A stretch of 64,000 bases of DNA from Nitrospirota bacterium (GTDB taxonomy: Bacteria > Nitrospirota > UBA9217). Made by a program: the position numbers and the translations under genes. The stretch is from assembly GCA_963751455.1 (NCBI GenBank), contig CAVVUN010000012.1, positions 608,001 to 672,000 on the forward strand, written 5' to 3'. The notes beneath the pieces are model-generated. The model saw only the letters and a list, made by a program, of their open reading frames with translations, did not search any database and was not told where the DNA came from. Positions 2,111 to 49,099 of the stretch are shown here, piece after piece. The first letter of the stretch is position 1; each line of letters begins with the position of its first letter.

Positions 2111-2119
2111 TTGAATCGC

Positions 2120-2158
2120 AAAAAAGAAGGGGAATGCAATACTTCCCCTTCTTTTTTT
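2120..2158 (+). terminator. Rho-independent terminator (possibly bidirectional)
   Basis: AAAAAAGAAGGGGAA-loop-TTCCCCTTCTTTTTTT. Confidence 0.85.
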
Positions 2159-2274
2159 CTTTATTCTTGTAATTTCTTAGTATTAGTTTTATAATTAATC
2201 CTCGAAATATGCGCACCTCTCATGGTCCTTTTTCCTTCTGTAAACCGAATTATTCATTAAAGAGGAGCTGTTTT

Positions 2275-3468
2275 ATGAATCGAGCTTTACTAAACTTATC
2301 GGCACTTATCCTTGTCTTTCTTTCAAGCTGCGCGACTGCTCCTCCAGTCGCAAAACCATCGCCCGTCTTTTACCCTGAACCTCCTGCTCCGGCCCGGATC
2401 CAATACCTCAGGTCGTACAACAGCTCGCAGGACATGGGCGCAAAAAAATCCGCATTTGCATCCTTCGTGACCGGACAAAAAGAAATTATTCGGGTAATCG
2501 ACAAACCATACGGCATCGCCGCGTATGCCGGAAAAATATACGTCTGCGACACCAACCAGACGGTTATGGTCCTCAATCTGGAAAAAAATACGTTTGACCG
2601 TCTCGCCGGCGCTCAGGGAGTCGGAAAACTCATCCAGCCGCTCAATATCCGCATCGATAAGGAAGGCAATAAATATGTCTCCGACCCTATCCGCCGCCAG
2701 GTGGTTATGTTCGACAAAAACGATTTCTATGTAAAGGCATTCGGACCCCTGGATAACTGGAAACCCGTCGATGCAGCGCCGTTCGAAGAACTCCTCTATG
2801 TTGCAGATTCAAAGAACGCCGAAATCAAGGTTTTTGATATTCGGACCGGGGCCTTTCGGAACGCTTTTGGGAAAACCGGAGACGACGCGTCAAAGCTTGC
2901 CTTGCCCACCAACATCGCATTCGACAGCGCCGGCTACCTTTACGTATCGGATTTCGGGAGATTTCAGATCGTGAAGTTCGATCGCGACGGCCACGGCCTT
3001 GGTGTAATCGGCGCGCTCGGAACCCATCCGGGGGCTTTTGCACGGCCCCGCGGCATTGCCTTCGACCTGCAGAACAGACTTTATGCCGTTGATGCGGCGT
3101 TCAACAATATCCAGATCTTCAATACGGATGGAAGGTTGCTGCTCTTTTTCGGCAAGGGCGGAAAAAGCCCCGGTGATCTCTATCTCGCTGCCAGCGTGGC
3201 CGTGGACTACGACAATGTGAAATATTTTCAGCAGTATGCCGATCCGAATTTTCAGATCGAATATCTCCTCATCGTTACAAGCCAGTTCGGCGATAAGAAG
3301 GTGAACGTCTACGGCTTCGGGACTGAGAAAGGAAAAACATATCAGACCGACAAGGATCTTGCCGACGCTATCGAGGAAAAGAAGCAGAAGTTCAAACAGG
3401 AACAGTTTGAAAAAACAAACGCTGCAGAACAAAAGGGAACCGACGCTGCCGTGCCGGTGACAAACTGA
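2275..3468 (+). CDS. NHL-repeat (six-bladed beta-propeller) lipoprotein
   Basis: Start at MNRALL (RBS GAGGAG); lipobox LSSC; repeats such as PxGIAxD...YVxD; FARPRGIAFD. Confidence 0.85.
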   Translation: MNRALLNLSALILVFLSSCATAPPVAKPSPVFYPEPPAPARIQYLRSYNSSQDMGAKKSAFASFVTGQKEIIRVIDKPYGIAAYAGKIYVCDTNQTVMVLNLEKNTFDRLAGAQGVGKLIQPLNIRIDKEGNKYVSDPIRRQVVMFDKNDFYVKAFGPLDNWKPVDAAPFEELLYVADSKNAEIKVFDIRTGAFRNAFGKTGDDASKLALPTNIAFDSAGYLYVSDFGRFQIVKFDRDGHGLGVIGALGTHPGAFARPRGIAFDLQNRLYAVDAAFNNIQIFNTDGRLLLFFGKGGKSPGDLYLAASVAVDYDNVKYFQQYADPNFQIEYLLIVTSQFGDKKVNVYGFGTEKGKTYQTDKDLADAIEEKKQKFKQEQFEKTNAAEQKGTDAAVPVTN

Positions 3469-3478
3469 TAGGTCTTAT

Positions 3479-4012
3479 ATGTCTTATAGGTCCTACAGGA
3501 CTTATATACTGATCTGCCTTGCAGGGGCGGTTTTAGTCTGCGGGTGCCGGGCAACAACGCGGTATGAAGTGCTCAGTTTTGTTTTTGACGGCGTTCCGCA
3601 GCCTGTGAACGGATCAGACGGAACTGCAGACTCCGACAATAAGCCTTCAACGGCGAAAGTGCAGCGCCGCCACAGCAAGCACGGGCCCTATGGCGCAAAG
3701 ATGTGCAATGCCTGCCATCAAAAGGGTACGAACACGCTGCTCCTGAAAAAGGAAGAGTTGTGCTTCAAATGCCATTCATTTCAACCGGCAAAAAAACAGC
3801 ATGGTCCCCTCGCTTCGGGCGGCTGCACGGTATGCCATGATCCGCACCGTTCCTCATATGAATATCTTCTTGTGGCAGAAGACAGGGAATTTTGCACTTA
3901 TTGCCATGACCCGAATGATGTATACTCACGGGACGTTCATCAAGGCATTGACAGCGCATGCACCGTTTGCCATAATCCTCATGGATCGGACAACGATTTT
4001 TTGCTCAGATAA
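3479..4012 (+). CDS. Pentaheme c-type cytochrome lipoprotein
   Basis: Lipobox-like VCGC; five CxxCH motifs (CNACH, CFKCH, CTVCH, CTYCH, CTVCH) with CHxPH patterns. Confidence 0.85.
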   Translation: MSYRSYRTYILICLAGAVLVCGCRATTRYEVLSFVFDGVPQPVNGSDGTADSDNKPSTAKVQRRHSKHGPYGAKMCNACHQKGTNTLLLKKEELCFKCHSFQPAKKQHGPLASGGCTVCHDPHRSSYEYLLVAEDREFCTYCHDPNDVYSRDVHQGIDSACTVCHNPHGSDNDFLLR

Positions 4013-4051
4013 CGTCCTGGTCGCCTCACTGAAGCCGGTGGTAACGGGCCG

Positions 4052-6094
4052 TTGAATAACACGGAAAGGGCTATAATCGTACGCGCTGCCGCGTTCGCCT
4101 TCGTCATCATGACCGGTGTTTTCCTTTCTCCTTCTCAAGCGATCGGCGAAGAAATGGACTTCTTTCCCCGGATTTTGGACTTTGGGGGGGCGTTGGAGGT
4201 AGGGGGCTCCCTCAGAGACTACAAGCGTTCAGTGGAAGGCCATGAGTTTAATACCAAGACCGATTTAATTTACGAACGGCTGAAGCTGGGCGCCATCGGC
4301 TACGTCTATCATCCCCGCTTCATGACCTATAGTGTGAGGGGCGCCGCGACCCTGAATGAGAACAGCTTCGATACCGAAAGGGGGTCAAGGAGCAGGTCCC
4401 GCTTTGCCGACGAATACGAAATGAGCACGACATTTCTTCCCGAGCATCCCTACAATTTTCATTTATTCAGGGAACGAAAGATTGTACTGAAGCCCTTGCT
4501 GGTCGGTTCGCCCGACATAGACCGGATAACCACCCTCAAGCAGGGAGCTTCTTTTCAGTATAACGCTCAACCTGCATCTCTTCAGCTCCATGCGGTTTCC
4601 ACCTCTTATGACAATCACTTCTCATCTCAAACAAAAAGATACTCGGCAACAGGAAGCTATTTGATCGGACCGTTCAATAACTCAGCCGGGTATAGCTACA
4701 GCGTTTTGAACACCGACAGCATGCAGGGAACCTATACCACTGCTTACTTCAGCAATAGCGTTTCCGTTTCGGTATTCGGCCTTTCGAGCAGCGTCGCGGA
4801 GAATCATCAGCTCCAGGAATATTATTTGGACGGATTCAGCGAAAATGAGTCTTTTTTATGGACCGAGCGCCTTACCGCGGAACTTCCCCTGAATTTGTCG
4901 GTCGGTATTTTCCATGACATACGACAGGATTCAGTGACGAGCGAGTCGACCGTTTCCGGAGTTCCGGAAATGGACGCTGATACCAGGACCGCTTCTGACG
5001 GCATCAGGGTTGACCATCAGCTCTACCGAAGCCTCAGAACTTCCTATGATCTGCAAAGGCTGTCATTGGAGTCGGACGAAGGAGATACAAAATCAATCGG
5101 CCAAACGCTTGCTGTCAATTATTCCAAGATTATCCCATCCGGGACGGTCAACGCCGGATATACAGCCCAGCATGCCACGCTTGAAAGATCGGGTGCGACC
5201 ACTATCGCAGGAGAATTTTATACAACAGCTGTCCCGGGATCCTTTACTCTGAGTAATCAGGCGGTTGACACGAATTCGATTACTGTTATGATCAAGGACC
5301 CGGTTACGCTCAACCTGGTGCTCTTGCCGGAAGGGACAAGTTACGAAGTACTTACCTTCGGCAACTCGGTCCAGATTACGATTCTGAATGTGCCTGCAGG
5401 GGTCAATCCTCCGCCCCCTCCCATCACAACATTCGATTTTTCTGTAACCTACTCGCTCGCAGTGAGCGCTTCAAGAACGCAAACATGGAGCAACGGCATA
5501 AATCTGGGGCTTATGCTCCTTGACGGACTCTTAAACCCCTACTTCAGTTATTTCACTTCCAATCAGGAAGTCGTGTCCGGGACTTTTTCGGAGGGCAATG
5601 AAACGGCAACCAGCCGGATTATCGGCTACACGGTGCAAAAGGCGCCATTCGTTCTGACGGCTGAGGAGAGCGTGGTCCGTTCGAATATCAGCCCATCACG
5701 GGCGTGGAGGACTGCTGTCGACTACCGGGAATATATATCACAGGACGTAAATGTATTCGCCCGGATCTCGTATAACGTGATAAAACGGGCGGCTTCGGGA
5801 GAGTTTCTGTCGAAGGATTATTCCGAGCAGACGACCGGCATGGATGTATCCATTCAAAAAACTTTTTCTGAAACGCATATGAATCTATTCGCGGGCGGGT
5901 CCTATGTCGATCGAAAGGTTGGGGACATCTCGATCGCGAACTACGGATTCAACACGGGACTCAGATGGCACGTCGGGAAACTTGATGTATCCGCTTCAGG
6001 AGCGCTCAGTCATTCCGCATCCGCGCGGCCGAGCGGCAGACAGACTGCTGAAGCAGTCTCTTATAGCCTCACGGTCAGCAGAAAAATATTCTGA
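4052..6094 (+). CDS. Outer-membrane beta-barrel (porin-like partner of cytochromes) with an inserted beta-rich domain
   Basis: Signal peptide; alternating hydrophobic Ser/Thr/Tyr-rich strands; C-terminal Phe (LTVSRKIF); lies between multiheme genes. Confidence 0.7.
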   Translation: MNNTERAIIVRAAAFAFVIMTGVFLSPSQAIGEEMDFFPRILDFGGALEVGGSLRDYKRSVEGHEFNTKTDLIYERLKLGAIGYVYHPRFMTYSVRGAATLNENSFDTERGSRSRSRFADEYEMSTTFLPEHPYNFHLFRERKIVLKPLLVGSPDIDRITTLKQGASFQYNAQPASLQLHAVSTSYDNHFSSQTKRYSATGSYLIGPFNNSAGYSYSVLNTDSMQGTYTTAYFSNSVSVSVFGLSSSVAENHQLQEYYLDGFSENESFLWTERLTAELPLNLSVGIFHDIRQDSVTSESTVSGVPEMDADTRTASDGIRVDHQLYRSLRTSYDLQRLSLESDEGDTKSIGQTLAVNYSKIIPSGTVNAGYTAQHATLERSGATTIAGEFYTTAVPGSFTLSNQAVDTNSITVMIKDPVTLNLVLLPEGTSYEVLTFGNSVQITILNVPAGVNPPPPPITTFDFSVTYSLAVSASRTQTWSNGINLGLMLLDGLLNPYFSYFTSNQEVVSGTFSEGNETATSRIIGYTVQKAPFVLTAEESVVRSNISPSRAWRTAVDYREYISQDVNVFARISYNVIKRAASGEFLSKDYSEQTTGMDVSIQKTFSETHMNLFAGGSYVDRKVGDISIANYGFNTGLRWHVGKLDVSASGALSHSASARPSGRQTAEAVSYSLTVSRKIF

Positions 6095-6137
6095 TGATGG
6101 ACTAAAGCTGCTGCAAAATCATTTTGAAGGGGGCATT

Positions 6138-7151
6138 ATGAAACTCGGAACACGAACCGGAACAATAGAAGCGCTCATTGCAATGCTCGCTCTGTTTACG
6201 ACCGGCCAGGCACACGCCAGCCAGCTTGCAGACACAACGACTCAATCAGGAATAAGCGAAGAGGCAAAAAATGCAGGCACTGATCGGGAGAACATGGCAG
6301 CAATAGTCAATGGCGTCCAGATAAGCGAAGGCACGGTCAACGAATTGATGAAGCGTCTTGGCACGGAAGATCAAGAGTCGAATCCGCAGCTCCGGAACGA
6401 CGTCAGAAAGAGGGCGTTGAACCAGCTGGTGCTGGAGGAACTCGCGACTCAGGAAGCAGCACGACAAAATATTAATGTAAAAAAGACGGATCTCGACAAA
6501 GCGATGAAGAGAGCCATATCGAATCTGGGCCATGAGGACGGGTATAGGGCTTTCTTGGAGGAGCAGCGCCTTACCGAGCCTGAATTCCGGGCGCAGATTG
6601 AACGATATCTTCTTCTTCAGCACTTGCTATCTAAAGAAGTGACTTCAAAAGTAGCCATAGCAGATAAAGACATACGCGCAGAATACGAGAGAATAAAAGA
6701 AGAGTTTGTGACGCCTGAAAAAATAGGTATCGTAGATGTGGTTTTTTTTCTGAACTATGATGATCCGGCATCGATAAAAAAGGTTGAGGAAACCCTGGCA
6801 AAGATTAAGGCCGACAAGGACAAGAATCCACACAATGTATCGGATCATGATGGCGAATTTGTCATTCGCGACCTGGATCCGCTTGCCAAAGAAAAAGAAC
6901 CGGTCCTTTATGAGGCAGCTCGGAAGCTCAAACAGGGCGACTTGTCGGGAGTAATAAAAACAGGCGACAGCCTCCATATTGTTCAACTGACGACCTATTC
7001 ACCCGAGCAGAAGAAGTCTTATGAAGAGGTGAAGGGGCTTGTGGGAAGCAAACTGAAAGCCGCCGCGCTCAAGAAACGTCGTATCGAGTGGGAGCAAGAA
7101 TTGAAAGAAAAGGCAAAGATTGAACTGATAAATAGCACCGATCCGAAATAA
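6138..7151 (+). CDS. SurA/PrsA-like periplasmic foldase (SurA N-domain plus degenerate parvulin)
   Basis: Likely start MKLGTR; AAIVNGVQI, ALNQLV.EEL..QEA, GDLSGVIKTGDSLHIV, ELKEKAKIE. Confidence 0.8.
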   Translation: MKLGTRTGTIEALIAMLALFTTGQAHASQLADTTTQSGISEEAKNAGTDRENMAAIVNGVQISEGTVNELMKRLGTEDQESNPQLRNDVRKRALNQLVLEELATQEAARQNINVKKTDLDKAMKRAISNLGHEDGYRAFLEEQRLTEPEFRAQIERYLLLQHLLSKEVTSKVAIADKDIRAEYERIKEEFVTPEKIGIVDVVFFLNYDDPASIKKVEETLAKIKADKDKNPHNVSDHDGEFVIRDLDPLAKEKEPVLYEAARKLKQGDLSGVIKTGDSLHIVQLTTYSPEQKKSYEEVKGLVGSKLKAAALKKRRIEWEQELKEKAKIELINSTDPK

Positions 7152-7265
7152 CTGGGTGATCTGTTTTCACTAAGGGAGTTAGTTACAAACAGCTGCCCCG
7201 GAGCTTGCTGTAATGAAAGCCCTCGAGAGAAGCAGGCGGCTTTCTCTCATGAGGGTAAAGGAACA

Positions 7266-8302
7266 ATGTACAAATATCTCGCTTTTTTTTTCCTTGGCTT
7301 GTTGGTTATAACCCCAGGCTGCGCGTCGAAATGGTCATTGGTCGTCGATTCGCCCACGGAACGGCCCGCATGGCCTGATGATTCGAATGGGCAGGTGGCG
7401 ACTTATATCGGAACCATCAGGGGTTTCAAGGAAACCGGAACGACGATATCGACGGTCTTGAGATCGTTCGCCTTTGGCAACAGAGCGGAAGACTATACCA
7501 TCGTCCGTCCCGTTTCAGCCGCGGTCGGACCTGACAACAGGCTTGCAATAGCCGACATCGGACGATCGTGCATTCATCTGTATATCCCTCTGAGCAGAAA
7601 TATATCAGGTTACGCAGAGCGGGTAAGGAGCAGCTGCGCACGCCGGTAAGCGTTGCATTCGATGACGAATCAAGATTATATGTATCCGATTCCACCAATC
7701 AGGTAATTTATGTATTCAACCGGGACGGAGCAGCTCTCGCTCCGATCAAAAAAGCCGGTGAGCATCCGCTTCTCAGACCCACGGGATTGTCCTATGCCCC
7801 CGGGAAAAAAACCCTTTACGCGGTCGACACTCTGGCCCACAGGGTATATGCATTCAGCCCGGACGGTTCCCTTCTCTTTTGGTTCGGAGGACCGGGAGAA
7901 AAGCAAGGGGAATTTAATTACCCGACCCATGCCGTGGCGGCGCCCGATGGCCGTCTGTTTGTGACGGACGCGATGAATTTCAGGATACAGGTGTTCGATT
8001 GGCAGGGGAAATTTTTAACCTCCTTCGGCCATCACGGCAACGGATCAGGCGATTTTGCGATGCCGAAAGGAATCGCAGTGGACAGAGACGGGGTCATTTA
8101 CGTTGTCGACACGCTATTCGACAATATCCAGCTATTCGACTTGAACGGAACTTTTCTTTTTACGATCGGAGGCCGGGGGCCGGGCCTCGGCGAATTCTGG
8201 CTCCCGTCCGGATTGTTTCTGGATGGCGAAGACAAACTGTATATCTGCGATACGTTCAATCAAAGAGTGCAATTATTTCAGTTGAGCGGGAAACATAGAT
8301 GA
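7266..8302 (+). pseudogene. NHL-repeat beta-propeller lipoprotein split by a 1-nt frameshift near 7586-7590
   Basis: ORF 7266-7649 (lipobox TPGC) and ORF 7568-8302 (NHL repeats FNYPTH, FAMPKGIAVD, FWLPSG) join as LYIP/SEQKYI if one base is added at atccctctgag. Confidence 0.75.
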
Positions 8303-10182
8303 AAAATATTTTGTTGATCGTAAACCTGTTGTTTATTTCCTGCGTCTTCTCATCAGCAGAAGCCATCTCAAACCAGGGAATCATCGGCACGAAACACGAC
8401 CTTTCAAGCAGCAATCCTGCGCCGAACGCCTATAAAGCTCTGAACGAAACCAGAATTTGCATATTCTGCCACACGCCGCACAATGCCAATCCCATGACAC
8501 CCCTCTGGAACAAAAACTTGAGCACCAAAACATACGATTTGTACAGCAGCACGACCATGCTTGCCGTGCCGCAGCAGCCGGAGGGGCCGACCCGGCTCTG
8601 CTTGAGCTGCCACGACGGCACCCTCGCTCTGGGTACCGTTTTGAAGCCCGAAGAAAACATAACAATGAGCGGAGCAACGAACCTGATTTCAGGGCCATCC
8701 TACATCGACAACCTCGACAATCATCACCCGGTCTCTTTCGCGTATTCTGATTCACTGCCGAATGACGAGCTTGCCCCGAGTCCCCCTGAGACGCTTCTCT
8801 TTTACAATTACGAAGACATTCACTGCACAACGTGTCACAACCCTCATGACAATAGGTACTCTAAATTCCTTGCCGTCAACAATGAGAACTCCGGTTTGTG
8901 CCTTCTCTGCCACAATAATATGGCAGGATGGAACACGGCATCACACAAAAACTCGCCGAATGTGTACACAGGTCCGCCTCCGCAAAACTCGACTAACCCG
9001 GACTACCCCTGGCCGCGAACAGGGGCAGGCAGCGACTTCGGATGGACAACAGTGCAGATGAACGGTTGTGAAAACTGCCATGCCCCGCATTCAGCCGGCG
9101 GCACGCAGCGGCTGATGAAGTATGAGACTGAGGAGCAGAATTGCTACGCCTGTCATAACGGCAACGTAGCAGCCGCAGCGAAAAACATTGAGACCCAATT
9201 TATGGGGAACACCTCGAGACATCACGTTGAAATGTATACAGACCTCCCGCCGCATGACGGCATAAACAAGCACGATCCCATGGCGGAAGGACAATCTCCT
9301 TTTGTTTATTCAGCCCACGTGGAATGCGTTGACTGCCATAATCCTCATGCGAGCGATAATTCATCGGCAACCGCTCCGGCTCGCTCCGGAAAAATTGCGA
9401 AGGTGACAGGAATTGACAAATCAGGCAACGCGGTTATTGCTCCCAACTTTGCCGCGAACGAATATGAAATCTGTTTTAAATGCCATGCTGACTCGGCCGG
9501 CTCAGACACCTATGACGCGACGATTTTTATCGAACGAAGCATCAGCACCATCAATACGCGTGTTGATTTCAGTGAAAGCAGCCAGATGAACTCGTCTCAT
9601 CATCCCGTCACCGACACTAAAACGAACGCGGATGACATTTCCAGCCTTTCGCCGCCGACTGATCCCGTCACCGATCCGGAAGTCCCGACCGGGCTTACTG
9701 CAATGAGCTATATTTATTGCACGGACTGCCACAGTGATGATAACCCTGCAGTGTCACGCGGTCCGCACGGGTCTCAATATGCGCCGATTCTGCGTAGACA
9801 GTACATTACCGATGTGGGCATGCCCTATAATGACGGCAACTTTCACCTGTGCTACCGATGCCACAACAAAACCAGCATCAAGAACGATGTTAGTTTCCGA
9901 AAAACCGGCGGTATGGGCGGGCACAGCGGGCATCTTCAGTCGCCGACGGACAATAAACCCATGTCCTGCTCCGTATGCCATGATCCGCATGGAGTGCAGG
10001 ACGACAGCGTCTCCGGCTCTCATACGTATCTGATTAATTTCGACATGAGTATCGTGCAACCGCTCGGCGCAAATCCTAAGCCGATTTACACGGACAACGG
10101 CGGCCATTCGGGAAGTTGCACGCTGGAATGTCATTTCCCCGACTTGACGGTCAAGTACCATGACAATGCCCCCTATCCATAA
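8299..10182 (+). CDS. Secreted ~12-heme c-type cytochrome with an OmcE-like N-terminal half
   Basis: Signal peptide; 11 CxxCH plus CTLECH; N-terminal KHDLS...CIFCHTPH...PLWN...CLSCHDG. Confidence 0.9.
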   Translation: MKNILLIVNLLFISCVFSSAEAISNQGIIGTKHDLSSSNPAPNAYKALNETRICIFCHTPHNANPMTPLWNKNLSTKTYDLYSSTTMLAVPQQPEGPTRLCLSCHDGTLALGTVLKPEENITMSGATNLISGPSYIDNLDNHHPVSFAYSDSLPNDELAPSPPETLLFYNYEDIHCTTCHNPHDNRYSKFLAVNNENSGLCLLCHNNMAGWNTASHKNSPNVYTGPPPQNSTNPDYPWPRTGAGSDFGWTTVQMNGCENCHAPHSAGGTQRLMKYETEEQNCYACHNGNVAAAAKNIETQFMGNTSRHHVEMYTDLPPHDGINKHDPMAEGQSPFVYSAHVECVDCHNPHASDNSSATAPARSGKIAKVTGIDKSGNAVIAPNFAANEYEICFKCHADSAGSDTYDATIFIERSISTINTRVDFSESSQMNSSHHPVTDTKTNADDISSLSPPTDPVTDPEVPTGLTAMSYIYCTDCHSDDNPAVSRGPHGSQYAPILRRQYITDVGMPYNDGNFHLCYRCHNKTSIKNDVSFRKTGGMGGHSGHLQSPTDNKPMSCSVCHDPHGVQDDSVSGSHTYLINFDMSIVQPLGANPKPIYTDNGGHSGSCTLECHFPDLTVKYHDNAPYP

Positions 10183-11804: not shown

Positions 11805-11853
11805 AAATATTTAACGAGGCAAGGCCTCAGACCGATGAAAAAAATACCTTGGA

Positions 11854-11960
11854 ACCGCGAAGGCGCGAAGGACGCGAGGAAAGCAGGAATTGAAACGGGT
11901 TTAAACCAGAAATAAGATTTTGTCGTATGGTTTCCTTCGCGCTCCTCGCGCCTTCGCGGT
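11854..11960. repeat. REP-like palindrome with 9-nt periodic arms
   Basis: ACCGCGAAGGCGCGAAGGACGCGAGGAA ... TTCCTTCGCGCTCCTCGCGCCTTCGCGGT. Confidence 0.7.
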
Positions 11961-12081
11961 AAATGCTTTTTAGCTTCTCAAAAACTTGATAATCATATGA
12001 AGGCACCTCAGCATACCAGAGCGTCTCAGCACTCTGGTATGCTTCAAGGAAAGAAGCCCATTCTAACCTTGGAGGTGCTAT

Positions 12082-13964: not shown

Positions 13965-16900
13965 ATGAATGTAAGAAAGAATTTAATCTTCTGGGCAGCC
14001 CTATTTTTCACGGCAATACCGCTCTCCGGCAACGCGAACCCTGATTTCAACAGAGATGGCGCTGTACGTGATCCAGCATCGCAAAGCGGGTGGGCGCTGC
14101 CAGCTCTTGACCCGGATACATCGGATCATGACAACTGTCTGCGATGCCATCAGCCGGGCGGACCGGCTGCCGACGTATCAGGGTACCTCAAGGGCGGCCA
14201 CAAAAATATGGCCCGCCCGGCGGACGGGAATGCATGGGGAATGCCCGGCGTAGATGCGACCCATCCCGCATCTTCCTGGCTCGCGGACGCCGGACTTGAT
14301 CCTCTTACCGGATTATTCGAAAAACTGGGGATACAGGAAGACTATCCCCAAATGTTCGTTAACTGGTCCCCCCGGACTATCTCTTTGGCCTACTGCGCAA
14401 AATCCGACGGAACGATAGGTTCGGATGATGTTCCGGATCTGGTCGCATGCCCGACCTGCGAGTCGCCGATAATGGCAAACGGCACTGCCGGATACCCTTT
14501 GAACTATCCAAACCAGACAACCTGCGAGACTGCCAGGCATCCGCTAACAGGCACCACGGATTATTTATGGGTCGATGAGGGCGATCAGCCCTTATACTGG
14601 ATTTACGGCGGCGCAGGACTCCGCCGCAATCCGGCTGTATTCGAGAGGGGTTCTCAAGTCTATTCATGCGCCCGCTGTCACACGACGGGTTGGACGGCAA
14701 ACGACATCAACACGGACCCTGATCTGGATCCCGATCGCGCTTTTGACCCGAACAAACTCCCCTACGGCAATCCTGCATGGTCGCTTGCCACTTTTACGAC
14801 CATGACGACTCTCGGCAACCCTTCCCAGCTTCTTCTTGACCCAGGCATGCCTCTCTGGCCTGCTGACGGCACGACTGCCACAGACACCGCTCGCAACCTT
14901 TCCTCCTGGGACCAGTGGGGCATCGAATGCTCACGGTGCCACATGTCCTTTTATGACGGTCATAGTACCTGGCCTAATCCCAGTTCCGCGTTTAACGGCT
15001 CTGGCATAACGACTGGCGGGGATATCACCGCGCTTTGCATGAACTGCCACCGGCAGGAGAATACGGGCCCGGGAAAAAATGGCGTTCCACTTCTGCTGAC
15101 AAACGGCTCTACAACGTCAGATATGGGGGCTAAACTTCTCTATACCAACAGAGCAGCGCAACCGGACGGCTTCTCGCATCATGCTGACGGAAACGAGTTT
15201 CTGAACAGCCCGCATGCGAAATTCAAGGGCAACTGGGGACAGATAGGCTGTCCGCCGTACTCAATCGTTCCCGGAGATCCGTCTTTTCCCGGAACGCCTC
15301 CAAGAGTTAACTATCCTATTGTTCCAACAGGGGAATACTGCAGTCGGGCTATAATGAACTTCAATGGTACGACAACCGCCTCATTGTATTTTAGCAAGTT
15401 CGCCAGGGCGGTGGTTGTCGATTTAGGCCAAAACACCAGCACGGCCGGAGGCTGCACTTCATGCCACAATGTCCACGAAACAACCAATGAGAACTCCTCA
15501 GGCTGGAGCGCCGGCGCATTTAACGCAACCTGCACGGATTGTCATTCAAATCCGGCCGCCACGATCACCGTTTCTCAGGTAAATCTTTCGTTAATGTACC
15601 ATCCGACCGGGCCGGGCACGCCCATGGAAAACCCGGCCAAGGCGTGCTCGATTTGTCATCAGCCGGAGGGGATGAAGCATCTCTGGAGAATAAACACAGA
15701 CCCGAATTACATTACATTCCCCACCTACACGAACAGTGAATCTCTCGCATCCACGGCAGTCGACACAACAGGGTATAATGCTGTCTGGGTTGACCTGGAT
15801 CATGCATGCGGACAATGCCATGGCGGCGGGGTGTCAGCAACGGACCTTGCAACAACCGGAACGATTGATACCAGTCCTACCGGCTCGAAAACCCTGACCG
15901 TTGACGATGCGACGGGCTTCGCTGCCGGTAAAAAAATCCATATCGCCGATGCAGGCGTGTCCGGAGGTCCTTTTAAGACCATCATCTCATCGGTCTCCGG
16001 AAGCACCGTCAACCTTTCCTATGCTGTGGTTTCATCGGTTGCCGGCGCAGCGGTAACCGTGTCAGGCAACCCTGCTGCCGAAGGCGCGCCCTATCTGACC
16101 GGGACCCAGATTGCAGAATCGGCAAAAACCATTCATGACGGGAACGTGAACAGCATGACTTGTTCGGTTTGCCATACCATCGGGACAGGTCATCACGTTA
16201 CCGGAACTACATCATGCTCGACATGCCATACCGCCCGGCTTCATACCCTTGTTCTGCCGCCTTCCGGAAATCCTTCCTATAATTCAGAGCATGTTACGCC
16301 CGGCACGGGTTGCCTGGGCTGCCATGGCCCTGGCGGCCTGGCGACTCACAACACCATTACTGCGGATGGAGCAGATGATAATCACCACTCCAACGCTGGT
16401 TCCTGTACATCATGCCACGGCGCATCCGGCGGAGAGGCACCGAATAACGCGGGCAAATCTTTGGCCGCTGACCGCAACGATTTTTGTCTAACCTGTCACA
16501 GCAACAGCGGGTCGTACCCGGTACATCACGGGGTCGCGGCAGTTGCAACAGCAGGCAAAGACTGCATGAGCATGGGCTGCCATGCTGCTAATGCCGGCGC
16601 GCCCGGGAACGCGCTCCCGGCCACGAACGCAAACTGCCTGCTGTGCCACAATAGCGCGATCGGCACGGCTCCTGCGATAGTACTCGGCACGAACCACCAT
16701 AGCGGCGTGAATTGCGCAGTATGCCATCTTGCCGAGCCGTTCGCTGTTCTGCCCCCTGCCGGGAATCCCGAATATAATTCTTCTACAGGGCATATAACGC
16801 CGGGCACGGGTTGCCTGGGATGCCATGGCCCCGGCGGCTTGGCGACACACAATACCATTACCGCGGATGGAGCAGGTGATAATCACCATTCCAACCAGGG

Positions 16901-19202
16901 TGCCTGTTCAACGTGCCATGGTGCATACGGCGGAGAGGCTACGAATAACGCGGGTAAATCCCTGGCCGCGGACGGCAACGCTTTCTGTCTCACCTGTCAC
17001 AGCAACACCGGGTCGTACCCGGCACATCATGGGGTCGCGGCAGTAGCAACAGCAGGCAAAGACTGCACCGATTGTCATAAAACTTTGATTGCCGGGCCGG
17101 GACAAGCTGGTGTCCCGGGTAACCCGCTTGCAGCCACGAACGCAAACTGCCTGCTGTGCCACAGCAGCGCTATTGGAACGGCTATAGCGATCATACCCGG
17201 CACGAACCACCATGGAGCCGGATTGCAAAATTGCACGACGTGCCACGGTGCATCCGGCGGAGAGGCGCCGAATAACGGGGGAAAATCCCTGGCTGCGGAC
17301 GGCAATGCTTTCTGTCTTACCTGCCACAGCAACGGCGGCAGTATCCCAGCCCACCATGCTGTTCCTGCCTTGAAGCCCGCGGGCAAGAACTGTTCAGCCT
17401 GTCATAATGGCGGCGGTGTAGCGCCGGCCGATAATAGCAACGCAGCCTGCATGCAGTGCCATGATCAGCCCTGGACCAGAACGGACGGCGTTACAAGCCT
17501 GGCAACGGTGAGCGCGGGCGTAAATCACCACACCGGGACATGTACGACCTGCCACACAGAGGGAGCCGCAACTATGATGTGGGCGGTAAGCCCGAGCGAT
17601 CCCGGTCTGAACTCCGACGGCACCGTAACGAATACGGCTGATGGTAACACTGCATGTATGACCTGTCACAGCACTGCGCAGGGCGGCAAAGTAGCGATTG
17701 TCACGAGCGGGGCCGGCGACAACCACCACGGCATGACCTTCGGCACCCCGGCTGAAACGCGCGCTCCGTGCGTGTCGTGCCACACGGGTAACGGCGGCGT
17801 TGCTTTTTCAGGCGGTAATACGCTCTGTTTGTCGTGCCATCAAAACTACCCGACTCCCAACGCGCTGGTCCAGGAAGCACAAAAGGGTGAGACCCCTGTA
17901 CCAGGCGCAAATCACCATTACGGCGTCTGCCTGAGCTGCCACATCCCGCAGCAGACGAACGGCTCGCTTGGCGTAACAGGGCCCGGAATACTACCGGTCA
18001 CCAGCGGCTGCAATGCATGCCATACCGTCGGAGGGCCGAACGGCCCCGGGATACAACACCATGATACCGTGCAGATTGCCGGCTGCGATCAATGTCATCT
18101 TTCGGCCGGTGTGAGGCCGACAGAGCACGGCACGAACATACTTCAAACATGCACGGATTGTCATACTGCCGCGCTGGCAACGATAAACCATCCGTGGTCG
18201 GGCTTGAATTGTACGAGCTGCCATGGAACGTCCGCGCCGACTGTTCCTGAAGGCGTCTGCGACAAGTGCCATACTTTGGATGCATTCGGCGCTGGCGCCG
18301 TTGTTGTTCGTTTCTGGCAGACGATTCATCAACCTATAGCGACAGCGGAATTCAAGTTCAGCTACAGTACGTCCGTGCCGAAGAAGGTTACGTTCACAAA
18401 TATAGGTACTAATTGTTCCGGTCCTGCCTGGGACTTCGGGGATGGTAGCACCGGAACCGGTTCGTCCGTGGATCATATTTACGATATTGTGGTCTCTTCC
18501 GCCACAATAACGATGACCTGCAGCGAAGGCGCTTCAAAGTCAAGAACCGTCTCCCCCAGGTCATTGTCGGCAGCGGCAGCGCCTTCCGTTGCATTGAACT
18601 TTAGTCCCGCAGTGACAGGCTACTCCATCGATCTTACCGATCTTACCGATTATGGTGTTTACAGTGGTGGTACGGGATCGATAAGAATCTCGTGGGGTGA
18701 CGGCAAATATACGACCGTGCCGAAAGGAACGACAACTATGTCGCATCTTTACCCCAGGGCGAGAAAATATACCATCGTAATTTATGCGACGCTGAATCCG
18801 GCGTCCGGATATTTTGGCCAGAGATTGAGGACAAAAATATCTGTTACGGTGGAACGTTTGATCGTATCCGGCATCATAACCAAGCCCGGCGGCACTACCC
18901 CATTCTCGGGCGTAATAATGACCTTGATGCACAACGGCAAAATCTTGAAAAAAGCAGTTACAAACTCATACGGGATGTACACATTCAGGAATGTAGTGCC
19001 GAACCATGTATTGGCGACGTATCCCACATCGACCAATTACTTCGATTATACAATCGAGGCGACCAAGAGAACCGGCAAGCTGATCAGCGACGGAACAACC
19101 ACGATACGTGAGGTCTACACCTGGACTCCTTCCCTCATCACGACAACGATAACGAATACGAGCCAGAGCGGTAAAAACTTCGAGGCCCTTCCACTGCCGT
19201 AA
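13965..19202 (+). CDS. Giant secreted multiheme cytochrome c (~35 hemes) with C-terminal PKD/Ig-like module
   Basis: Signal peptide; about 34 CxxCH plus CMSMGCH by manual count; internal tandem repeats; PKD-like WDFGDG and ISWGDG; ends NFEALPLP. Confidence 0.9.
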   Translation: MNVRKNLIFWAALFFTAIPLSGNANPDFNRDGAVRDPASQSGWALPALDPDTSDHDNCLRCHQPGGPAADVSGYLKGGHKNMARPADGNAWGMPGVDATHPASSWLADAGLDPLTGLFEKLGIQEDYPQMFVNWSPRTISLAYCAKSDGTIGSDDVPDLVACPTCESPIMANGTAGYPLNYPNQTTCETARHPLTGTTDYLWVDEGDQPLYWIYGGAGLRRNPAVFERGSQVYSCARCHTTGWTANDINTDPDLDPDRAFDPNKLPYGNPAWSLATFTTMTTLGNPSQLLLDPGMPLWPADGTTATDTARNLSSWDQWGIECSRCHMSFYDGHSTWPNPSSAFNGSGITTGGDITALCMNCHRQENTGPGKNGVPLLLTNGSTTSDMGAKLLYTNRAAQPDGFSHHADGNEFLNSPHAKFKGNWGQIGCPPYSIVPGDPSFPGTPPRVNYPIVPTGEYCSRAIMNFNGTTTASLYFSKFARAVVVDLGQNTSTAGGCTSCHNVHETTNENSSGWSAGAFNATCTDCHSNPAATITVSQVNLSLMYHPTGPGTPMENPAKACSICHQPEGMKHLWRINTDPNYITFPTYTNSESLASTAVDTTGYNAVWVDLDHACGQCHGGGVSATDLATTGTIDTSPTGSKTLTVDDATGFAAGKKIHIADAGVSGGPFKTIISSVSGSTVNLSYAVVSSVAGAAVTVSGNPAAEGAPYLTGTQIAESAKTIHDGNVNSMTCSVCHTIGTGHHVTGTTSCSTCHTARLHTLVLPPSGNPSYNSEHVTPGTGCLGCHGPGGLATHNTITADGADDNHHSNAGSCTSCHGASGGEAPNNAGKSLAADRNDFCLTCHSNSGSYPVHHGVAAVATAGKDCMSMGCHAANAGAPGNALPATNANCLLCHNSAIGTAPAIVLGTNHHSGVNCAVCHLAEPFAVLPPAGNPEYNSSTGHITPGTGCLGCHGPGGLATHNTITADGAGDNHHSNQGACSTCHGAYGGEATNNAGKSLAADGNAFCLTCHSNTGSYPAHHGVAAVATAGKDCTDCHKTLIAGPGQAGVPGNPLAATNANCLLCHSSAIGTAIAIIPGTNHHGAGLQNCTTCHGASGGEAPNNGGKSLAADGNAFCLTCHSNGGSIPAHHAVPALKPAGKNCSACHNGGGVAPADNSNAACMQCHDQPWTRTDGVTSLATVSAGVNHHTGTCTTCHTEGAATMMWAVSPSDPGLNSDGTVTNTADGNTACMTCHSTAQGGKVAIVTSGAGDNHHGMTFGTPAETRAPCVSCHTGNGGVAFSGGNTLCLSCHQNYPTPNALVQEAQKGETPVPGANHHYGVCLSCHIPQQTNGSLGVTGPGILPVTSGCNACHTVGGPNGPGIQHHDTVQIAGCDQCHLSAGVRPTEHGTNILQTCTDCHTAALATINHPWSGLNCTSCHGTSAPTVPEGVCDKCHTLDAFGAGAVVVRFWQTIHQPIATAEFKFSYSTSVPKKVTFTNIGTNCSGPAWDFGDGSTGTGSSVDHIYDIVVSSATITMTCSEGASKSRTVSPRSLSAAAAPSVALNFSPAVTGYSIDLTDLTDYGVYSGGTGSIRISWGDGKYTTVPKGTTTMSHLYPRARKYTIVIYATLNPASGYFGQRLRTKISVTVERLIVSGIITKPGGTTPFSGVIMTLMHNGKILKKAVTNSYGMYTFRNVVPNHVLATYPTSTNYFDYTIEATKRTGKLISDGTTTIREVYTWTPSLITTTITNTSQSGKNFEALPLP
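16250..17345 (+). repeat. Intragenic tandem duplication of a ~165-aa multiheme block (two copies plus a partial third)
   Basis: TPGTGCLGCHGPGGLATHNTITADGA...GKSLAAD.N.FCLTCHSN...HHGVAAVATAGKDC...ATNANCLLCH is repeated; GGEAPNN.GKSLAADGNAFCLTCHSN occurs a third time. Confidence 0.85.
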
Positions 19203-20206: not shown

Positions 20207-20645
20207 TGATTAGATCGTAATCTTGCCTAACCTGAAATTGGCCGAACCAAATTTGCCACGAAGACACAAAGGCACGAGGAATAGAAAATCGATTTCTTGC
20301 TTGTGCTTGATATTATAACTAATTATTTTTTGTGGTTTGTTCACTCCCCCGGGTAACAGCTACAGAAAATAATAAAGTAAAGGAGGTTAAACAAGAAATA
20401 TTACAGTAAAGCTTTGCACATATAATTGCAATGTTATGCATATTTGCAATTATATGTCTTTAAGTTCCCCCAAAAAACTCTAATTAGCTGGCAGGCTGAA
20501 AGGAGGCCACAAACGTATAATAATTCCTCGTGCTTTTTGGTATAAGAAGCGCAACGATCTAACTTTGCCTTTTGCAGGCAAGGTTTTTGTATTCGGTTTC
20601 AAATACTGTTCGTTAGACAATCTATGAATTAGAGGAGACGAAAAC

Positions 20646-23600
20646 ATGGGTAAAATACACCTCAGGGGCAAGATAGTTTTGTTTATTGCTGTCTGCCTCT
20701 TCATGAGTGTTGCGACGGCCTATGCACACACCCTGGATGTCACGTTGAAGGACTCCCTGGGTTCGGCCGTTTCCAGCACAACGCCGTACAGCCCCAAAAT
20801 GACGTGCGGCGGCTGCCACTTCAATTGCAGTGACGGTTCCTACAGCACCGACAAAAACACGTGGTGCGACAACAGCGGCGCCGGCAAAATGCAGAAAGAC
20901 TGCTCTGCAGCCGGCAACTGCCCGGACTATGAATCAGCGGCAACGACGGAAGTCAGCAAGGTGCAGGGTTACGCGGATTCCAATGGCGTTACCACGTACA
21001 TGACGTATACGGTTAAAGCGCCTGTTCACGGCGCTTCCGTGGGCAAACACAGCACGTTAGGCAGGAATGAAGGCCTGGTAGCCGCTCAGCGCTCTATCTG
21101 GGGAGCCCCGGCTACCATCAGCGGGCCCGGCATGTCCGGCCGCTACTGACCGCCCTCCAACCGCCAGTTGGCGGGAAAAATCATCAATGACGACACAGAG
21201 AGCGGTCGTTTAAGAGAAATAGAATTGAGCACTCCGAATTTCGCGAAGGACTGCGGCGTCTGCCATGTAGGCGGCGGACAGATGGAATACGACTACGATA
21301 TGAAAGCCTACGGCGACCCGTCTTCAACGGACATCGCCAGCAGGTATACCTACAGGCCGAACAGGGTTGCCGGAGACGGCAGCATTGTCCCGGGCGGAAT
21401 CGTTTCCACAGATACGAATTCGACCAGGGAGCTTTTCGGCGACAACAAGGTTGAAGTCGATTGTATGATGTGTCACATGGACGGCCTCAGGACAGGCGCT
21501 GCCTGGTACAAGTCCCTGGGGTGCAGCTCCACGAATCCCGTGGGCCCGGCGGACGATCCCACCTGCAGCGGACCGCAGTTTGCGGGTGTGGATACGGATG
21601 CAGGCACGTTCTATGATTCATACAACAGGAACATCTCGGTATCATTGGGCTATCTGAAGCAGGCTGCCACTGCAGGTCTCGGCGCCCTGATTGATCTGGC
21701 AAGCGGTACGCTCAGCAATGTGCCCTCCACGATTCCGGCTGAGAAAATCACTTCAACACCGAACAGCAATAACTGCGCAATGTGCCATGCAAGGACCAAT
21801 TCCGACAGCATCGGTCTTCCCATGGAAGCGGCCAAGTACGGCGGCATGACAACCGGCTTCGGCAACTTCTTCAGGATGACTGCCGCAGAGCAGGCCTTCG
21901 ATTTCGATGAGATTGACGGCAGCGGAGCCATAGCTTCCGGAAAAGACGGCAAAAACGACACACTCTGGAACGAGTTCGGCTGCAAAACCGGCATGGGCAA
22001 GCGGTCCCAGCGCTCAGGTGTCGGCACCCAGGACAGGTTCGGTTTCGGTATCTGTCTCGGTTGCGCCACGTTTAACGCCATGGGCGGCGACATGACGACC
22101 GGCTGGTTTAGCAACGGTCTATGCGCAATGCCGAGTGTTCAGGCGGCCTGCAACGAGGCGGCCGGAACCACGTTACAGGGTAGCGAGGGTCAGTGGATGG
22201 GTATTTTCGAAGATCCTATGACCATGCTGCCTAAGAAAGTCGCGGGCAAGATGTCAGACACCGATGTTCATGATGCCGCCGGGGTAAAGTGCGCAACCTG
22301 CCACTATACCCTCTCCGGAGATTTCGCCGGAAGGACGATCTCGTCCGGCGCGACATCCTATACGTATCCCGGTATTGCGGGCGTGCAGAAGATGGACCAC
22401 CAGGTTGCACAGGGATGGAGCACGCTCGAAAAAGCAAATGACGTGTTTGACGGGACGGTTACCTGCGAAGGCTGTCATATCGAAGGGACCCATCCCAACA
22501 AGGGTACGGCGCCTGTTCCTGCCCACGCCGGCTTCCCGGCATTCCATTTCGAAAAAATCGACTGCAGGACATGCCACATACCCAGAATATTCTCGTCGCC
22601 CGGAAGACTGTTGTTCAGAGACTGGACAACGGGCGGGTACCGGCAGACCGACGGCGCCAACGGCAACGCCAACCACTTCGACTTTGCCTTCAACTTCATG
22701 GAAGGCGGAGCAACGCCGATGATTCCGTTAAAGCAATGGATCAAAGTTCAGGAACCGACCGGTGCTGTAGTGAAGATAGCGCCCGGACTTCCCTCCATGC
22801 TGCCGATGTGGGTGGGCAAGGGTTCTCCGAACGGTGCGGATTACATCCCGCTCAAGACAAGAGACGTCACCGCAGCAGCCGCGCTCGTTGCGGCGAATAA
22901 TCCCAGCTTCGGGATACGCATCAACGAAACGAACGATGTTGCCGCATTCAACGGCTTCCAGCTTACTGATCCCCTGAAGATCGAATCTGCAGCCAAGATC
23001 GCAGCGATGAGAGCCGAGCTTTTGGGAACAGGAGCGGGACTGGCAACGCATAGCGCATATGTCGACCCGAAGATGAACCTGCAGCCCTTCTTCTTCGACC
23101 CGTCCCACGGTATCACCGACAGTTCATTGGCCCTCGGATCGCCGTCAGCCGGCGGCTGCGTGATGTGCCATTCGAGCTCTGTCCCGGGAAATCCGAACTA
23201 CAGCCCCTACTCCGTCGGCTTCTTTGACGGTCAAAAGGAGCTGCTCAAGAACGGGTTTATGCAGATGGCTGATTATGACTGCGGCGGCGATGATATGCAT
23301 CAGCTGAACGCGAGTCTGTACGGTAACACACCCGGCGGCTGGACCGCAGCCAACACGATGTGCCAAATGTTCGATTCCAACGCCAGCGGCACATGCGATG
23401 GTGACGAACTGCTTGCCTGCAAGACGTACATCGCAAGCAACCTGTTCCCGATGTTCGGCATGCCTGCTGACATCTCAACAGCCATGCCGGTCGACGGCAT
23501 CGACATGATGCAGATGTTCTCGATCCGGGAAGGCAGCTTCGCACTCGGCTGCAATCCGGTCTACTCGTTCTTCGGGTTCCCGACTGCAGGCCGTATGACT

Positions 23601-25100
23601 GGACCGGGCTCCATGACGAACGGCACCGGACCTACGAACGGCTGCGAGGCGACTGATTTCTACAGCCGCGACGAGACAAGACTGTATTACAAGAAGAACC
23701 TTCAGCAGGTCCAGGACGGCGGAGCGAACAAGGTCTTCGGCAACATAAAAGTGGGACCGACGTTCGCCACGTACGACATCGGATCAAAGTGCATCACCGA
23801 CCCGATGACAGGCGCAACCGGCACATGCACGAATGGAGGTTATATAGCTACGACGGTCTCTGAGAAGACGCTTCTGGGCTATGACACCGCAACCCTTGAT
23901 AAACTCATGAACGGGTCGGCGGTGAGCACCATGAATTGCGTTGGGTGCCATCCCACCCAGACACATACCACTCACGTGGTTACATATGCCGACACCTGCA
24001 CAACGTGCCATACAACAACGCATATAACCATACCGTCGTCGGCAACAATGTCCTCATGCGAGGGTTGCCACTCTCAGACGATGTCGACTCTGAGCCATTC
24101 TACAACAGGTACTACAACGCCTCAGAATTGCGGCTCCTGCCATGCAACAGCAGGTGTTGTGCCTACAATCTCGGCGTGCGAGTCATGTCATGGTACCCCG
24201 GTTTCGTCTATGGTCGACCTGCGGTTTTCCCAGATTCACAGCGGATCACTGCCAAGGCCGGCTTTCAGCTGGACGAACGACGCTGTAACGCCGTTCAAGA
24301 TCCTGTTTAGCGGAGCGTCGTCAACGAACTGCTCGACCTACTCATGGAATTTCGGCGACGGTTCTTCAGCGACCGGTATAACCACGGACCATACGTATGC
24401 CCTCGCCACTTCCCAGACCGTAACGATGACTTGCGGCGATGCATCAACGTCCGCATCCGTATCCAAAACGGTCTACCCGAGAGCAGCAGCAGCTCCCGCT
24501 ATTACCCCGGCTGCAAACGTAGTCACAGACGGATACCACGTAACCTTAACGGATACGACTGTGGCTTCGGGCATGACAGGGACAATAACAATCATGTGGG
24601 GCGACGGTCAGCGCAGCTACATACGAATGGGCGGCGAAGCCGACCATCTGTACCGCAGAGCGAGAACGTACAATGTCATGATGATGCTAAGAACCGACAC
24701 CCCCGGATACAGGGTAGAGGCCTCCAGGGCTAAGATACCGGTTACGATCGAGCGTTTGATCATATCCGGCCTCGTAACCAAGCCAGGCGGCACTACCCCG
24801 TTCCCGGGCGTGATCATGACCCTGAAGCACAACGGTAATACCGTGAAGAAGGCGGTTACCAACTCCTTCGGTGCATACACGTTCAGAAACGTAGTGCCGA
24901 ACGTGGTATTGGAGACGTATCCGACACCGACGACATACTCTGATTATACGATCGAGGCATTGAAGAGAACCGGCAGACTGGTCAGCGACGGAACAACCAC
25001 AACACGAGAGGTTTATAGCTGGACACCTGCAACCATCACGACAACGGTTACGAATGCCACCGTAACTGTCAACGACTTCGAGGCCCAGCCTTTACCGTAA
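20646..25100 (+). CDS. Secreted ~13-heme cytochrome c (1484 aa) with an in-frame TGA at 21147-21149, probably selenocysteine; C-terminal PKD/Ig-like module
   Basis: ORFs 20646-21149 and 21168-25100 are in the same frame (...PGMSGRY-TGA-PPSNRQLAGK...). Only the first has an RBS and signal peptide. A hairpin follows the TGA. 1+12 CxxCH; ends DFEAQPLP. Confidence 0.75.
21150..21175 (+). promoter_or_regulatory. Candidate SECIS hairpin
   Basis: CCC-T-CCAAC / loop CGCCA / GTTGG-C-GGG immediately 3' of the TGA; the loop contains a G but is closer to the UGA than the usual consensus. Confidence 0.45.
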
Positions 25101-25160: not shown

Positions 25161-25231
25161 CTTGCCTTTTAACGAATAACATTATAGTATTCGAGAACAT
25201 TAAAAAAAATCTCGGTTCAAGGAGTAAATTG

Positions 25232-26227
25232 ATGAGATCAATAATTCGAAGTGCGGGCCACTTTACGATCTGCGTTTTCTTGGCTGTGGTTGTCCTGAGC
25301 GGATGCACGAAGCATTTGCCTGCCGCGGAAAAGGCCTCAAAAGAAGCTGCCGTGGTGAACGATGAAGCAAAAAAAATTGTTGTTGCAAAAGTGAACAACG
25401 CGGAATTGTCCATGGATTCGCTCGTCAAAATCATGAACCGTCTCCCGGATAAAACCGGCGGTGCAACCGAGAGCCTGGAAGAACGCAGGAAAAGGGCGTT
25501 GGACAGCCTGGTCCTGCTGGAGCTGGCATATCAGCGGGCCAAGGAGCAAAAATCGATGGTGGATCCAACCAAGATCGACTTATCAATCAGCAATTTTATA
25601 AATAACACCGGCGGCGAAAAGGAATATTCCGAATACCTGAAGAGTAACAATATCACTGAGGCTGACCTTCGTTCCGAGATAGAGCGGGGTCTTACAATTG
25701 AACAGATTTATGCCAAAGAAGTTGTCGACAGCGTTTCGATTCCCGAAGAAGAACTGCGCAGGGAGTACGAAAATGTACAAGAGCAGCTGATCCAGCCCGA
25801 GAAAGTTTCGATTATTGATGTCCACGTGTTGAAAAACGATGGCAAGGGGGCAAAAACAAAAGCAGAGAAATTACTCCGAATGATAAAAGCGGATGCTCGC
25901 CAGGACCCTTGGAAATTGATACTCGACGGGACCTTCACTGTCCGAAAGCTGCTTGTCCGGCCCGAACGGGAAAGAGAGCTCTACGAAGCTGCGAAGAAAT
26001 TGAAACCTCAACAATTCTCCGGCGTGATAAACGCATCTGACGGGGTCCATATCATCAAGCTGGAAAACTATTCACCCGAGAGAAAGCTTACATTTGAAGA
26101 GGCGAAAACAAAAATGGAGGCAACCTTGAAGGGCCCTGCTGTCGAAAAGAGGACCCGGGAATGGGAAGAGGAGTTGAAAAAAGACGCGAAGATCGAAATA
26201 TTGGATCCCGATATAACACCTCGCTAG
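25232..26227 (+). CDS. PrsA/SurA-like foldase lipoprotein, copy 1
   Basis: Lipobox LSGC; VAKVNN, ALDSLV..EL.YQ.A, QFSGVI...DGVHIIKL, ELKKDAKIE. Confidence 0.85.
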   Translation: MRSIIRSAGHFTICVFLAVVVLSGCTKHLPAAEKASKEAAVVNDEAKKIVVAKVNNAELSMDSLVKIMNRLPDKTGGATESLEERRKRALDSLVLLELAYQRAKEQKSMVDPTKIDLSISNFINNTGGEKEYSEYLKSNNITEADLRSEIERGLTIEQIYAKEVVDSVSIPEEELRREYENVQEQLIQPEKVSIIDVHVLKNDGKGAKTKAEKLLRMIKADARQDPWKLILDGTFTVRKLLVRPERERELYEAAKKLKPQQFSGVINASDGVHIIKLENYSPERKLTFEEAKTKMEATLKGPAVEKRTREWEEELKKDAKIEILDPDITPR

Positions 26228-49083: not shown

Positions 49084-49099
49084 GTCTCTGTGACATGAC

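Follow-up and report, generated by a model that had tools for sequence, protein, structure and literature searches.

Is the TGA that separates two open reading frames (ORFs) of a multiheme cytochrome locus a stop codon, or does it encode selenocysteine (Sec), and what could such a protein do? The locus lies on the plus strand of a 64,000-nucleotide stretch from a Nitrospirota bacterium (contig CAVVUN010000012.1, positions 608,001 to 672,000), hereafter the window. The ATG at 20646, the TGA at 21147-21149 and the stop codon at 25098-25100 all share one frame, and this TGA, the only one in frame between start and stop, divides an upstream ORF (20646-21149) from a downstream ORF (21168-25100). 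Reading it as Sec gives a protein of 1484 residues, hereafter the source protein, with the local sequence ...SGRY-U168-PPSNRQLAGK and 13 CxxCH motifs, one (C54) before the TGA and 12 beyond it; eight of them fall within residues 54-842 and five within residues 1098-1182. This is the layout proposed by the initial annotation, and the sequence confirms it: AGAGGAG, a ribosome-binding site, precedes the ATG, and the downstream ORF has a TTG start at 21168, no purine-rich ribosome-binding site in the preceding 18 nt and no signal peptide. The protein database starts the downstream part at M213 (entry P0002) and not at TTG 21168. The two annotated fragments very likely form a single gene that encodes a large, exported cytochrome with 13 hemes; the family has one copy in the source genome. 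The features of the gene are as follows, where OTR is octaheme tetrathionate reductase and SECIS the Sec insertion sequence.

20646..25100, plus strand: whole gene, 1484 residues with TGA168 read as Sec and 13 CxxCH motifs (frame, homologues)
20646..20726, plus strand: predicted cleavable signal peptide, residues 1-27, cleavage at ...AYA/H (read from the sequence)
20727..23276, plus strand: predicted octaheme OTR-like core, residues 28-877, with large insertions (profiles, fold)
21147..21149, plus strand: in-frame TGA, predicted Sec168 (column of TGA and Cys codons only)
21161..21174, plus strand: conserved SECIS-like hairpin CCGCC-AGUU-GGCGG (alignment of TGA sites)
21252..21266, plus strand: heme II motif CGVCH, residues 203-207 (equivalent of OTR C74-H78)
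23937..24191, plus strand: five additional CxxCH motifs, residues 1098-1182, accessory and lineage-specific (homologue comparison)
24258..25097, plus strand: PKD domain and carboxypeptidase-regulatory-like tail (Pfam, shared module)

Codon 168 and its hairpin

Related loci were collected by a genome-collection scan (2 loci), from 401 genomes of the phylum, 14 of which had a match, and by a metagenome scan, in which the best 80 of 462 confirmed stretches were kept and gave 76 loci. Anchoring on the heme II motif yielded 99 sites, which merged at 95% nucleotide identity into 82 distinct ones. Codon 168 is TGA in 69 of these, the source site included, TGT in seven and TGC in six; TGG, TAA and TAG were found at none of the 82. 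A first homologue search had returned 54 other proteins, of which nine reach codon 168, all with Cys, and 45 begin beyond it. The expectations that relatives would carry either Cys or TGA here, never Trp, and that standard annotation would split the gene are thus both borne out. The named homologues belong to Nitrospirota, Desulfobulbaceae and Thiovibrio. A quick tree was built from 63 of the 82 rows, after those with fewer than 200 downstream codons had been dropped and the site and the hairpin codons masked; its best topology has six switches between Sec and Cys, and at least four are forced by starred branches. Sec-type and Cys-type paralogues stand in tandem within one locus in three cases (L026, L052 and L034).

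Downstream of the codon, a stem of at least 5 bp (5-7 bp) with an AGUU or AGUUA loop occurs at a fixed register in all 69 TGA sites, but in none of the 13 Cys sites (9 of 13 in register); among the ordinary TGA stops of the source genome, used as a control, 61 of 3912 (1.6%) have a stem at that register. All pairs of the CCGCC-AGUU-GGCGG register hold in 65 of the 69 TGA sites, and in the remaining four the stem is shifted and the loop has 5 nt. The stem begins 11 nt after the UGA and the loop after 16 nt, which satisfies the bacterial SECIS rule of an apical loop 16-37 nt after the UGA (PMC10778597; here and below, published work is cited from extracts). Two of the five stem pairs change on both sides in a set of 14 rows hand-picked to include variants. 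The codons of the stem are fixed against usage: Leu is TTG in 65 of 69 sites, although TTG makes up 10% of the genome's Leu codons, and Gln is CAG in 69 of 69. Synonymous choice is frozen inside the stem only, and the Gly and Tyr codons upstream vary freely.

The hairpin of the initial annotation was a different fold of the same region. It is the minimum-energy structure of the source sequence (-11.7 kcal/mol), 1.8 kcal/mol more stable there than the conserved hairpin, and is not unusual on its own because its z is only -1.2 to -1.9. As a conserved element it was rejected, since it is fully paired in 4 of the 69 TGA sites compared with 65 of 69 for the register above; in the 14 chosen rows 80% of its cells are paired, no pair changes on both sides, and 372 of 500 shuffles are equally good. 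It yields to the conserved hairpin when the first 9-11 nt after the UGA are masked in a ribosome-like manner. The SECIS-like element therefore stands, and the proposed register is replaced. A divergent Cys (TGT) member (L101:323-360) retains a SECIS-like hairpin with a two-codon shift, possibly a relic.

The source genome has selA and selB above their cut-offs and two tRNA-Sec genes above the Rfam score (G000:C1:369631-369725 and C13:3951-4041); the second tRNA gene lies on a 9.4-kb contig of an assembly with 5.4% contamination and may be foreign. Three MccSep genes (NF040886; L103, L104 and L105), all elsewhere in the genome, have their own in-frame TGA and downstream hairpin, and two of them are near-identical around the Sec codon. 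The gene selD, also with its own TGA and hairpin, is present but has a frameshift near codon 190 (G000:C2:129959-130880; L004, L005), so the Sec machinery foreseen for this genome was found except for an intact selD. The sulfur gene dsrA is split by a similar frameshift (G000:C2:327037-328180); because it is broken in the same way, both breaks are probably assembly indel errors, which, if real, would affect any gene count from this assembly. Of the seven other genomes with the TGA, six have both selA and selB; the seventh (96% complete) has neither in its assembly but does have a tRNA-Sec and a selD of the TGA type. Both genes also occur in five of the six Cys-only genomes, and co-occurrence therefore does not discriminate.

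Because the column holds only TGA and Cys, the hairpin covaries and the genome has Sec machinery, read-through is strongly supported, as the initial annotation had proposed, and we predict from the sequences, with very little doubt, that Sec is inserted at codon 168.

The octaheme core and the site of Sec168

The first eight hemes had been likened to octaheme oxidoreductases. A 115-row profile searched against the PDB gave OTR (1SP3) as the first match at E 4e-8, but single-sequence and 16-row PDB searches did not match OTR, and an 84-row profile did not list 1SP3 at E 0.01; with so marginal a signal from sequence, the OTR assignment depends on the fold search. In hhalign, the family profile paired with 11 true OTRs at P 99.7% and E 5.7e-25, with hemes II-VIII matched one to one. 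An AlphaFold2 model of residues 28-877, built with Cys in place of Sec and without hemes (pLDDT 89, pTM 0.91), matched 1SP3 at a Foldseek E of 4e-4 and a VIA Z of 10.2 (rmsd 4.2 over 341 aligned residues). Among 48,161 chains, 1SP3 was the sole match with Z over 5, and the next best had Z 2.9. The model thus predicts an octaheme tetrathionate reductase fold with eight hemes for residues 28-877, and the earlier likeness is right and can be narrowed to OTR. TIGR04315 is the sole match of an NCBIfam scan, and at 28.9 bits for the whole protein and 32.2 bits for the core it lies far below the curated cut-off of 375, which places the protein outside that family. Across 301 genomes from the phylum, the cut-off is passed by 20 proteins, and an internal TGA was found in none of them.

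Besides the motif histidines, the core keeps His135, His542, His585, His627, His634 and His821, and also Lys452, which is present in 73 of 80 rows and aligned with OTR Lys153, a residue that we take to line the active site. Two insertions specific to the subfamily, at 22053-22151 (residues 470-502) and at residues 61-92, contain conserved groups of Cys, each a CxxC that lacks the His together with two further Cys, which could form disulfides or a metal site.

The likeness to OTR (Shewanella oneidensis SO4144; 1SP3; TIGR04315) covers the fold, the order of the eight hemes and the presence of Sec or Cys within the segment preceding heme II. The differences are considerable: the core of the source protein is twice as long, lacks both the NNF-C/U motif and the invariant Lys ligand, and has Arg where the OTR KHGD sequence has His. 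The source protein also carries extra hemes and a PKD tail, and its gene lies among conduit-like neighbours. The OTR motif C74-H78 binds heme II, whose ligand is Lys56 (PMC3769277), and a conserved Cys is described as part of the catalytic site (bioRxiv 2023.04.20.537704); we number it Cys64 from the 1SP3 sequence. In the listed OTR selenoprotein WP_331457571.1, Sec follows NNF, where OTR has Cys64, and the Lys is retained (PMC12013277).

Alignment of the N-terminal parts with hhalign (106 vs 42 rows) placed G165-R166 on OTR G55-K56 in 8 of 8 runs. A second model, beginning at G165, superposed its residue 1 on 1SP3 residue 58 (Z 8.2, rmsd 5.1). The two methods thus put Sec168 at OTR 58-61, between Lys56 and Cys64, with registers that differ by about 3 residues; a global hhalign of the whole core gave no defined N-terminal register. 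Within this uncertainty of about 3 residues, Arg166 is aligned with OTR Lys56, and residue 166 is K in 51 of the 82 sites, R in 27, T in three and G in one. Residue 167, directly before Sec or Cys, is aromatic (Y/F/W) in 79 of 82. Alignment and model together suggest that Sec168 is probably located at the catalytic heme II.

Two other multiheme proteins bear on this core. MccSep/ExtKL (GSU2937-2936, NF040886), with which the initial annotation compared the gene, is likewise an exported multiheme c-type selenoprotein that gene callers split, with a SECIS-like hairpin downstream of the UGA; its Cys forms, too, are nested within the Sec forms, and it occurs in Nitrospirota and Desulfobacterota. 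MccSep is, however, a periplasmic protein with five hemes and Sec near its C-terminus, whereas the source protein has an eight-heme core with Sec between hemes I and II. NF040886 matched none of 16 family members at E 0.1, while it matches the three separate genes of the source genome described above. At the level tested, the two proteins appear not to be homologous, and the analogy is one of function only. The heptaheme MmcA of Methanosarcina shares an OTR-derived fold at the cell surface (bioRxiv 2023.04.20.537704), and TIGR04314 weakly matches 4 of the 16 family members. MmcA lacks heme II, which the Sec family keeps and supplements with Sec.

The C-terminal module and the neighbouring genes

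In a Pfam scan, a PKD domain (residues 1211-1276) scores above the cut-off and a carboxypeptidase-regulatory-like match in the tail below it. The PKD module is common to the source gene and four other giant cytochrome genes on the same contig, and its closest copy is 88% identical in amino acids over 432 residues and 96.7% in nucleotides over 1164 nt. The five giant genes (11, 13, 21, 32 and 34 hemes) end in this module at 78-97% DNA identity; they include 13965-19202, 27793-29727 and G000:C12:597309-608390, and several are followed by a SurA-like gene. This pattern suggests that giant cytochrome genes swap the C-terminal module. All nine full-length Cys homologues of the first search have 8 CxxCH. 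Because the module is shared and most full-length relatives have eight hemes, the five extra hemes appear to be a recent, swappable addition absent from most relatives. The five-heme segment of the initial annotation is present at residues 1098-1182 but is not conserved, and its terms "extracellular" and "wire" were interpretations, not observations.

The following neighbouring genes were identified.

1274..10182, plus strand: 4-heme, NHL, 5-heme, 680-residue putative beta-barrel, SurA-like peptidyl-prolyl isomerase (PPIase), NHL and 11-heme genes (context scans)
13965..19202, plus strand: 34-heme protein with the same C-terminal module (context)
25229..26227, plus strand: SurA-like PPIase directly downstream of the Sec cytochrome (family scan)

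The 680-residue neighbour is a putative beta-barrel, as judged from its composition, C-terminal Phe and context; it had no family match. Among 24 related loci of at least 8 kb, some of them near-duplicates, a PPIase gene occurs in 17, a tetraheme gene in 14, and the NHL genes and the 680-residue barrel-like gene in 13 each. The neighbourhood looks like that of a Uet-type outer-membrane conduit. In 'Ca. Tenderia electrophaga' (bioRxiv 2022.05.06.490989), the Uet cluster has tetraheme, PPIase, beta-barrel and small cytochrome genes, two NHL genes and an undecaheme gene, and the set also recalls DFE_0448-0465 of Desulfovibrio ferrophilus (PMC9769857). The likeness to both is one of gene layout alone, not of sequence, and the published passages on them that we consulted mention no selenoprotein. 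Taken with the PKD tail, the Uet-like neighbours make it fairly likely that the protein sits outside the outer membrane.

Several other features of the window were recorded. Two transposase genes (ISH6-like and IS110) interrupt the cytochrome cluster at 10466-13101. Sigma-70 and terminator scans gave nothing above chance. Of 63 related loci, 19 (e.g., L006, L009 and L013) have an upstream match to the sigma-54 consensus, a count that may include chance matches; the source locus has a weak variant only (20538-20553). Two sigma-54 activators are encoded at 30907-32403 and 34960-36351, and between them lies the gene of a 494-residue predicted lipoprotein (32627-34111) with no Pfam or NCBIfam match. 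A Wadjet-like defence operon with matches to JetA, DUF4194 and JetD and a gene for 1128 residues occupies 47848-54560.

A candidate function and its alternatives

We propose, as a reading with about an even chance of being correct, that the source protein is a surface OTR-like reductase of sulfur compounds in which Sec168 at heme II acts as the nucleophile; it is graded so because nothing in the locus names the substrate. SelB would bind the hairpin and insert Sec, the step of which we are most confident. The signal peptide would export the chain for heme attachment, and the PKD tail and the Uet-like neighbours make it plausible that the mature protein is then placed outside the outer membrane. 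Electrons would pass from conduit cytochromes through bis-His hemes to heme II, where the selenolate of Sec168, like OTR Cys64 or MccSep Sec325, would attack and hold a sulfur chain, and S-S bonds of polysulfide, sulfur or polythionates would likely be cleaved at the cell surface. MccSep uses a Sec beside a heme for polysulfide (PMC13510729), and dsrA in the source genome was counted for sulfur. If the protein is catalytic, a sulfur compound is slightly favoured as its substrate; OTR and MccSep are the basis for assuming the reductive direction.

A number of observations weigh against this proposal. The hairpin rule was drawn from the TGA set itself, and formal p-values overstate its significance because of this and because the rows are kin. 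Beyond the close family the column loosens: in a wider superfamily set (925 representatives, E 0.001), the 55 rows at column 168 hold C in 40 (10 of them a read-through TGA), S in six, D in two, R in two and others in five, so that the residue does not appear fixed there. The one read run matching the locus contains relatives only, at less than 99% identity, and selD is frameshifted in the source assembly. At heme II, the hhalign register has probabilities of 86-95% with low column confidence, the superposition at rmsd 5.1 comes from models without hemes and with Cys instead of Sec, which makes the register weak, and Sec168 lies 35 residues before heme II compared with 10 in OTR. OTR itself is promiscuous (PMC13510729), and among the scanned neighbours there is no sulfur-specific gene; they indicate electron transfer, not a substrate.

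That the protein is not a selenoprotein at all, with the TGA a nonsense mutation, a sequencing error, a boundary between two genes or a Trp codon, is very improbable. The indel-like breaks in selD and dsrA speak for such a reading, but the same in-frame TGA recurs at 68 other distinct sites, never as Trp, TAA or TAG, and the downstream part has no signal peptide. Reading TGA as Trp was rejected on the absence of Trp among the 82 sites and because long ORFs in the source genome end in TGA more often than in any other stop codon (1059 of 2586). Sec168 may, rather than a nucleophile, be the axial iron ligand of heme II, replacing OTR Lys56 in a low-potential, Se-ligated c-type heme, a possibility that we regard as unlikely but the most serious of the alternatives. 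The segment has no invariant Lys, given the residues at position 166, and hhalign sets Sec two residues beyond the Lys56 column; MccSep and TsdA have catalytic His/Cys hemes (PMC13510729), and a natural Sec-ligated P450 has been reported (PMC11703216). Among the papers listed by a single literature search, none with natural Sec ligation of a c-type heme was found. On the other side, the aromatic residue before Sec matches F-C64 of OTR, a position where Sec is already listed (PMC12013277), heme II retains its own His207, and Met163, present in 77 of 82 sites counted without realignment, is another candidate ligand. By analogy, a nucleophile seems rather likelier than an iron ligand. A more speculative extension, somewhat less probable again, is that Sec replaces the OTR Lys as iron ligand of a c-type heme in a conduit-wired surface selenoenzyme through which sulfur-cycling Nitrospirota and Desulfobulbaceae directly exchange electrons with extracellular solid sulfur.

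The remaining alternatives concern what the protein acts upon. It may be a surface electron-transfer protein for minerals, electrodes or partner cells, without small-molecule catalysis; the Uet-like neighbours, the C-terminal module common with 21- to 34-heme proteins and the OTR relative MmcA, a non-catalytic conduit (bioRxiv 2023.04.20.537704), speak for this. Yet the Sec family, unlike MmcA, which lost both heme II and its Lys, keeps heme II with a costly Sec or Cys beside it, and Lys452 is widely retained, so that we consider pure electron transfer doubtful. Marginally less probable still is that the selenoenzyme acts not on sulfur compounds but on selenium oxyanions or on nitrogen oxides (nitrite or hydroxylamine). 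Both nitrite and hydroxylamine are reduced by OTR (bioRxiv 2023.04.20.537704), and selenite is a further substrate of MccSep (PMC13510729). Against this, the one case that has been tested links heme-side Sec/Cys chemistry to S-S substrates (PMC13510729), and surface display fits insoluble substrates.

Multiheme selenoenzymes and Sec-type OTRs are already known, and the source protein represents no new principle. The part consulted of a 119-entry table (PMC13188914) has three cytochrome entries, ExtKL, GSU2204 and TIGR04315, and the source protein belongs to none of them; a description of the subfamily was not found in the portions searched of papers, PMC13188914 and the supplements of PMC12013277 and PMC13326102, a scope that covers neither BSepDB nor the bioRxiv supplements. 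The locus adds a widespread selenoprotein subfamily, one that gene callers break: the RefSeq homologue WP_448551135.1 from Thiovibrio sp. JS02 starts beyond the Sec-codon position and is named for its tail alone. If the surface location is true, the protein would be a candidate for the step that reaches insoluble sulfur, beside the periplasmic MccSep, and the role of selenium at a heme could be tested with the natural Sec/Cys pairs.

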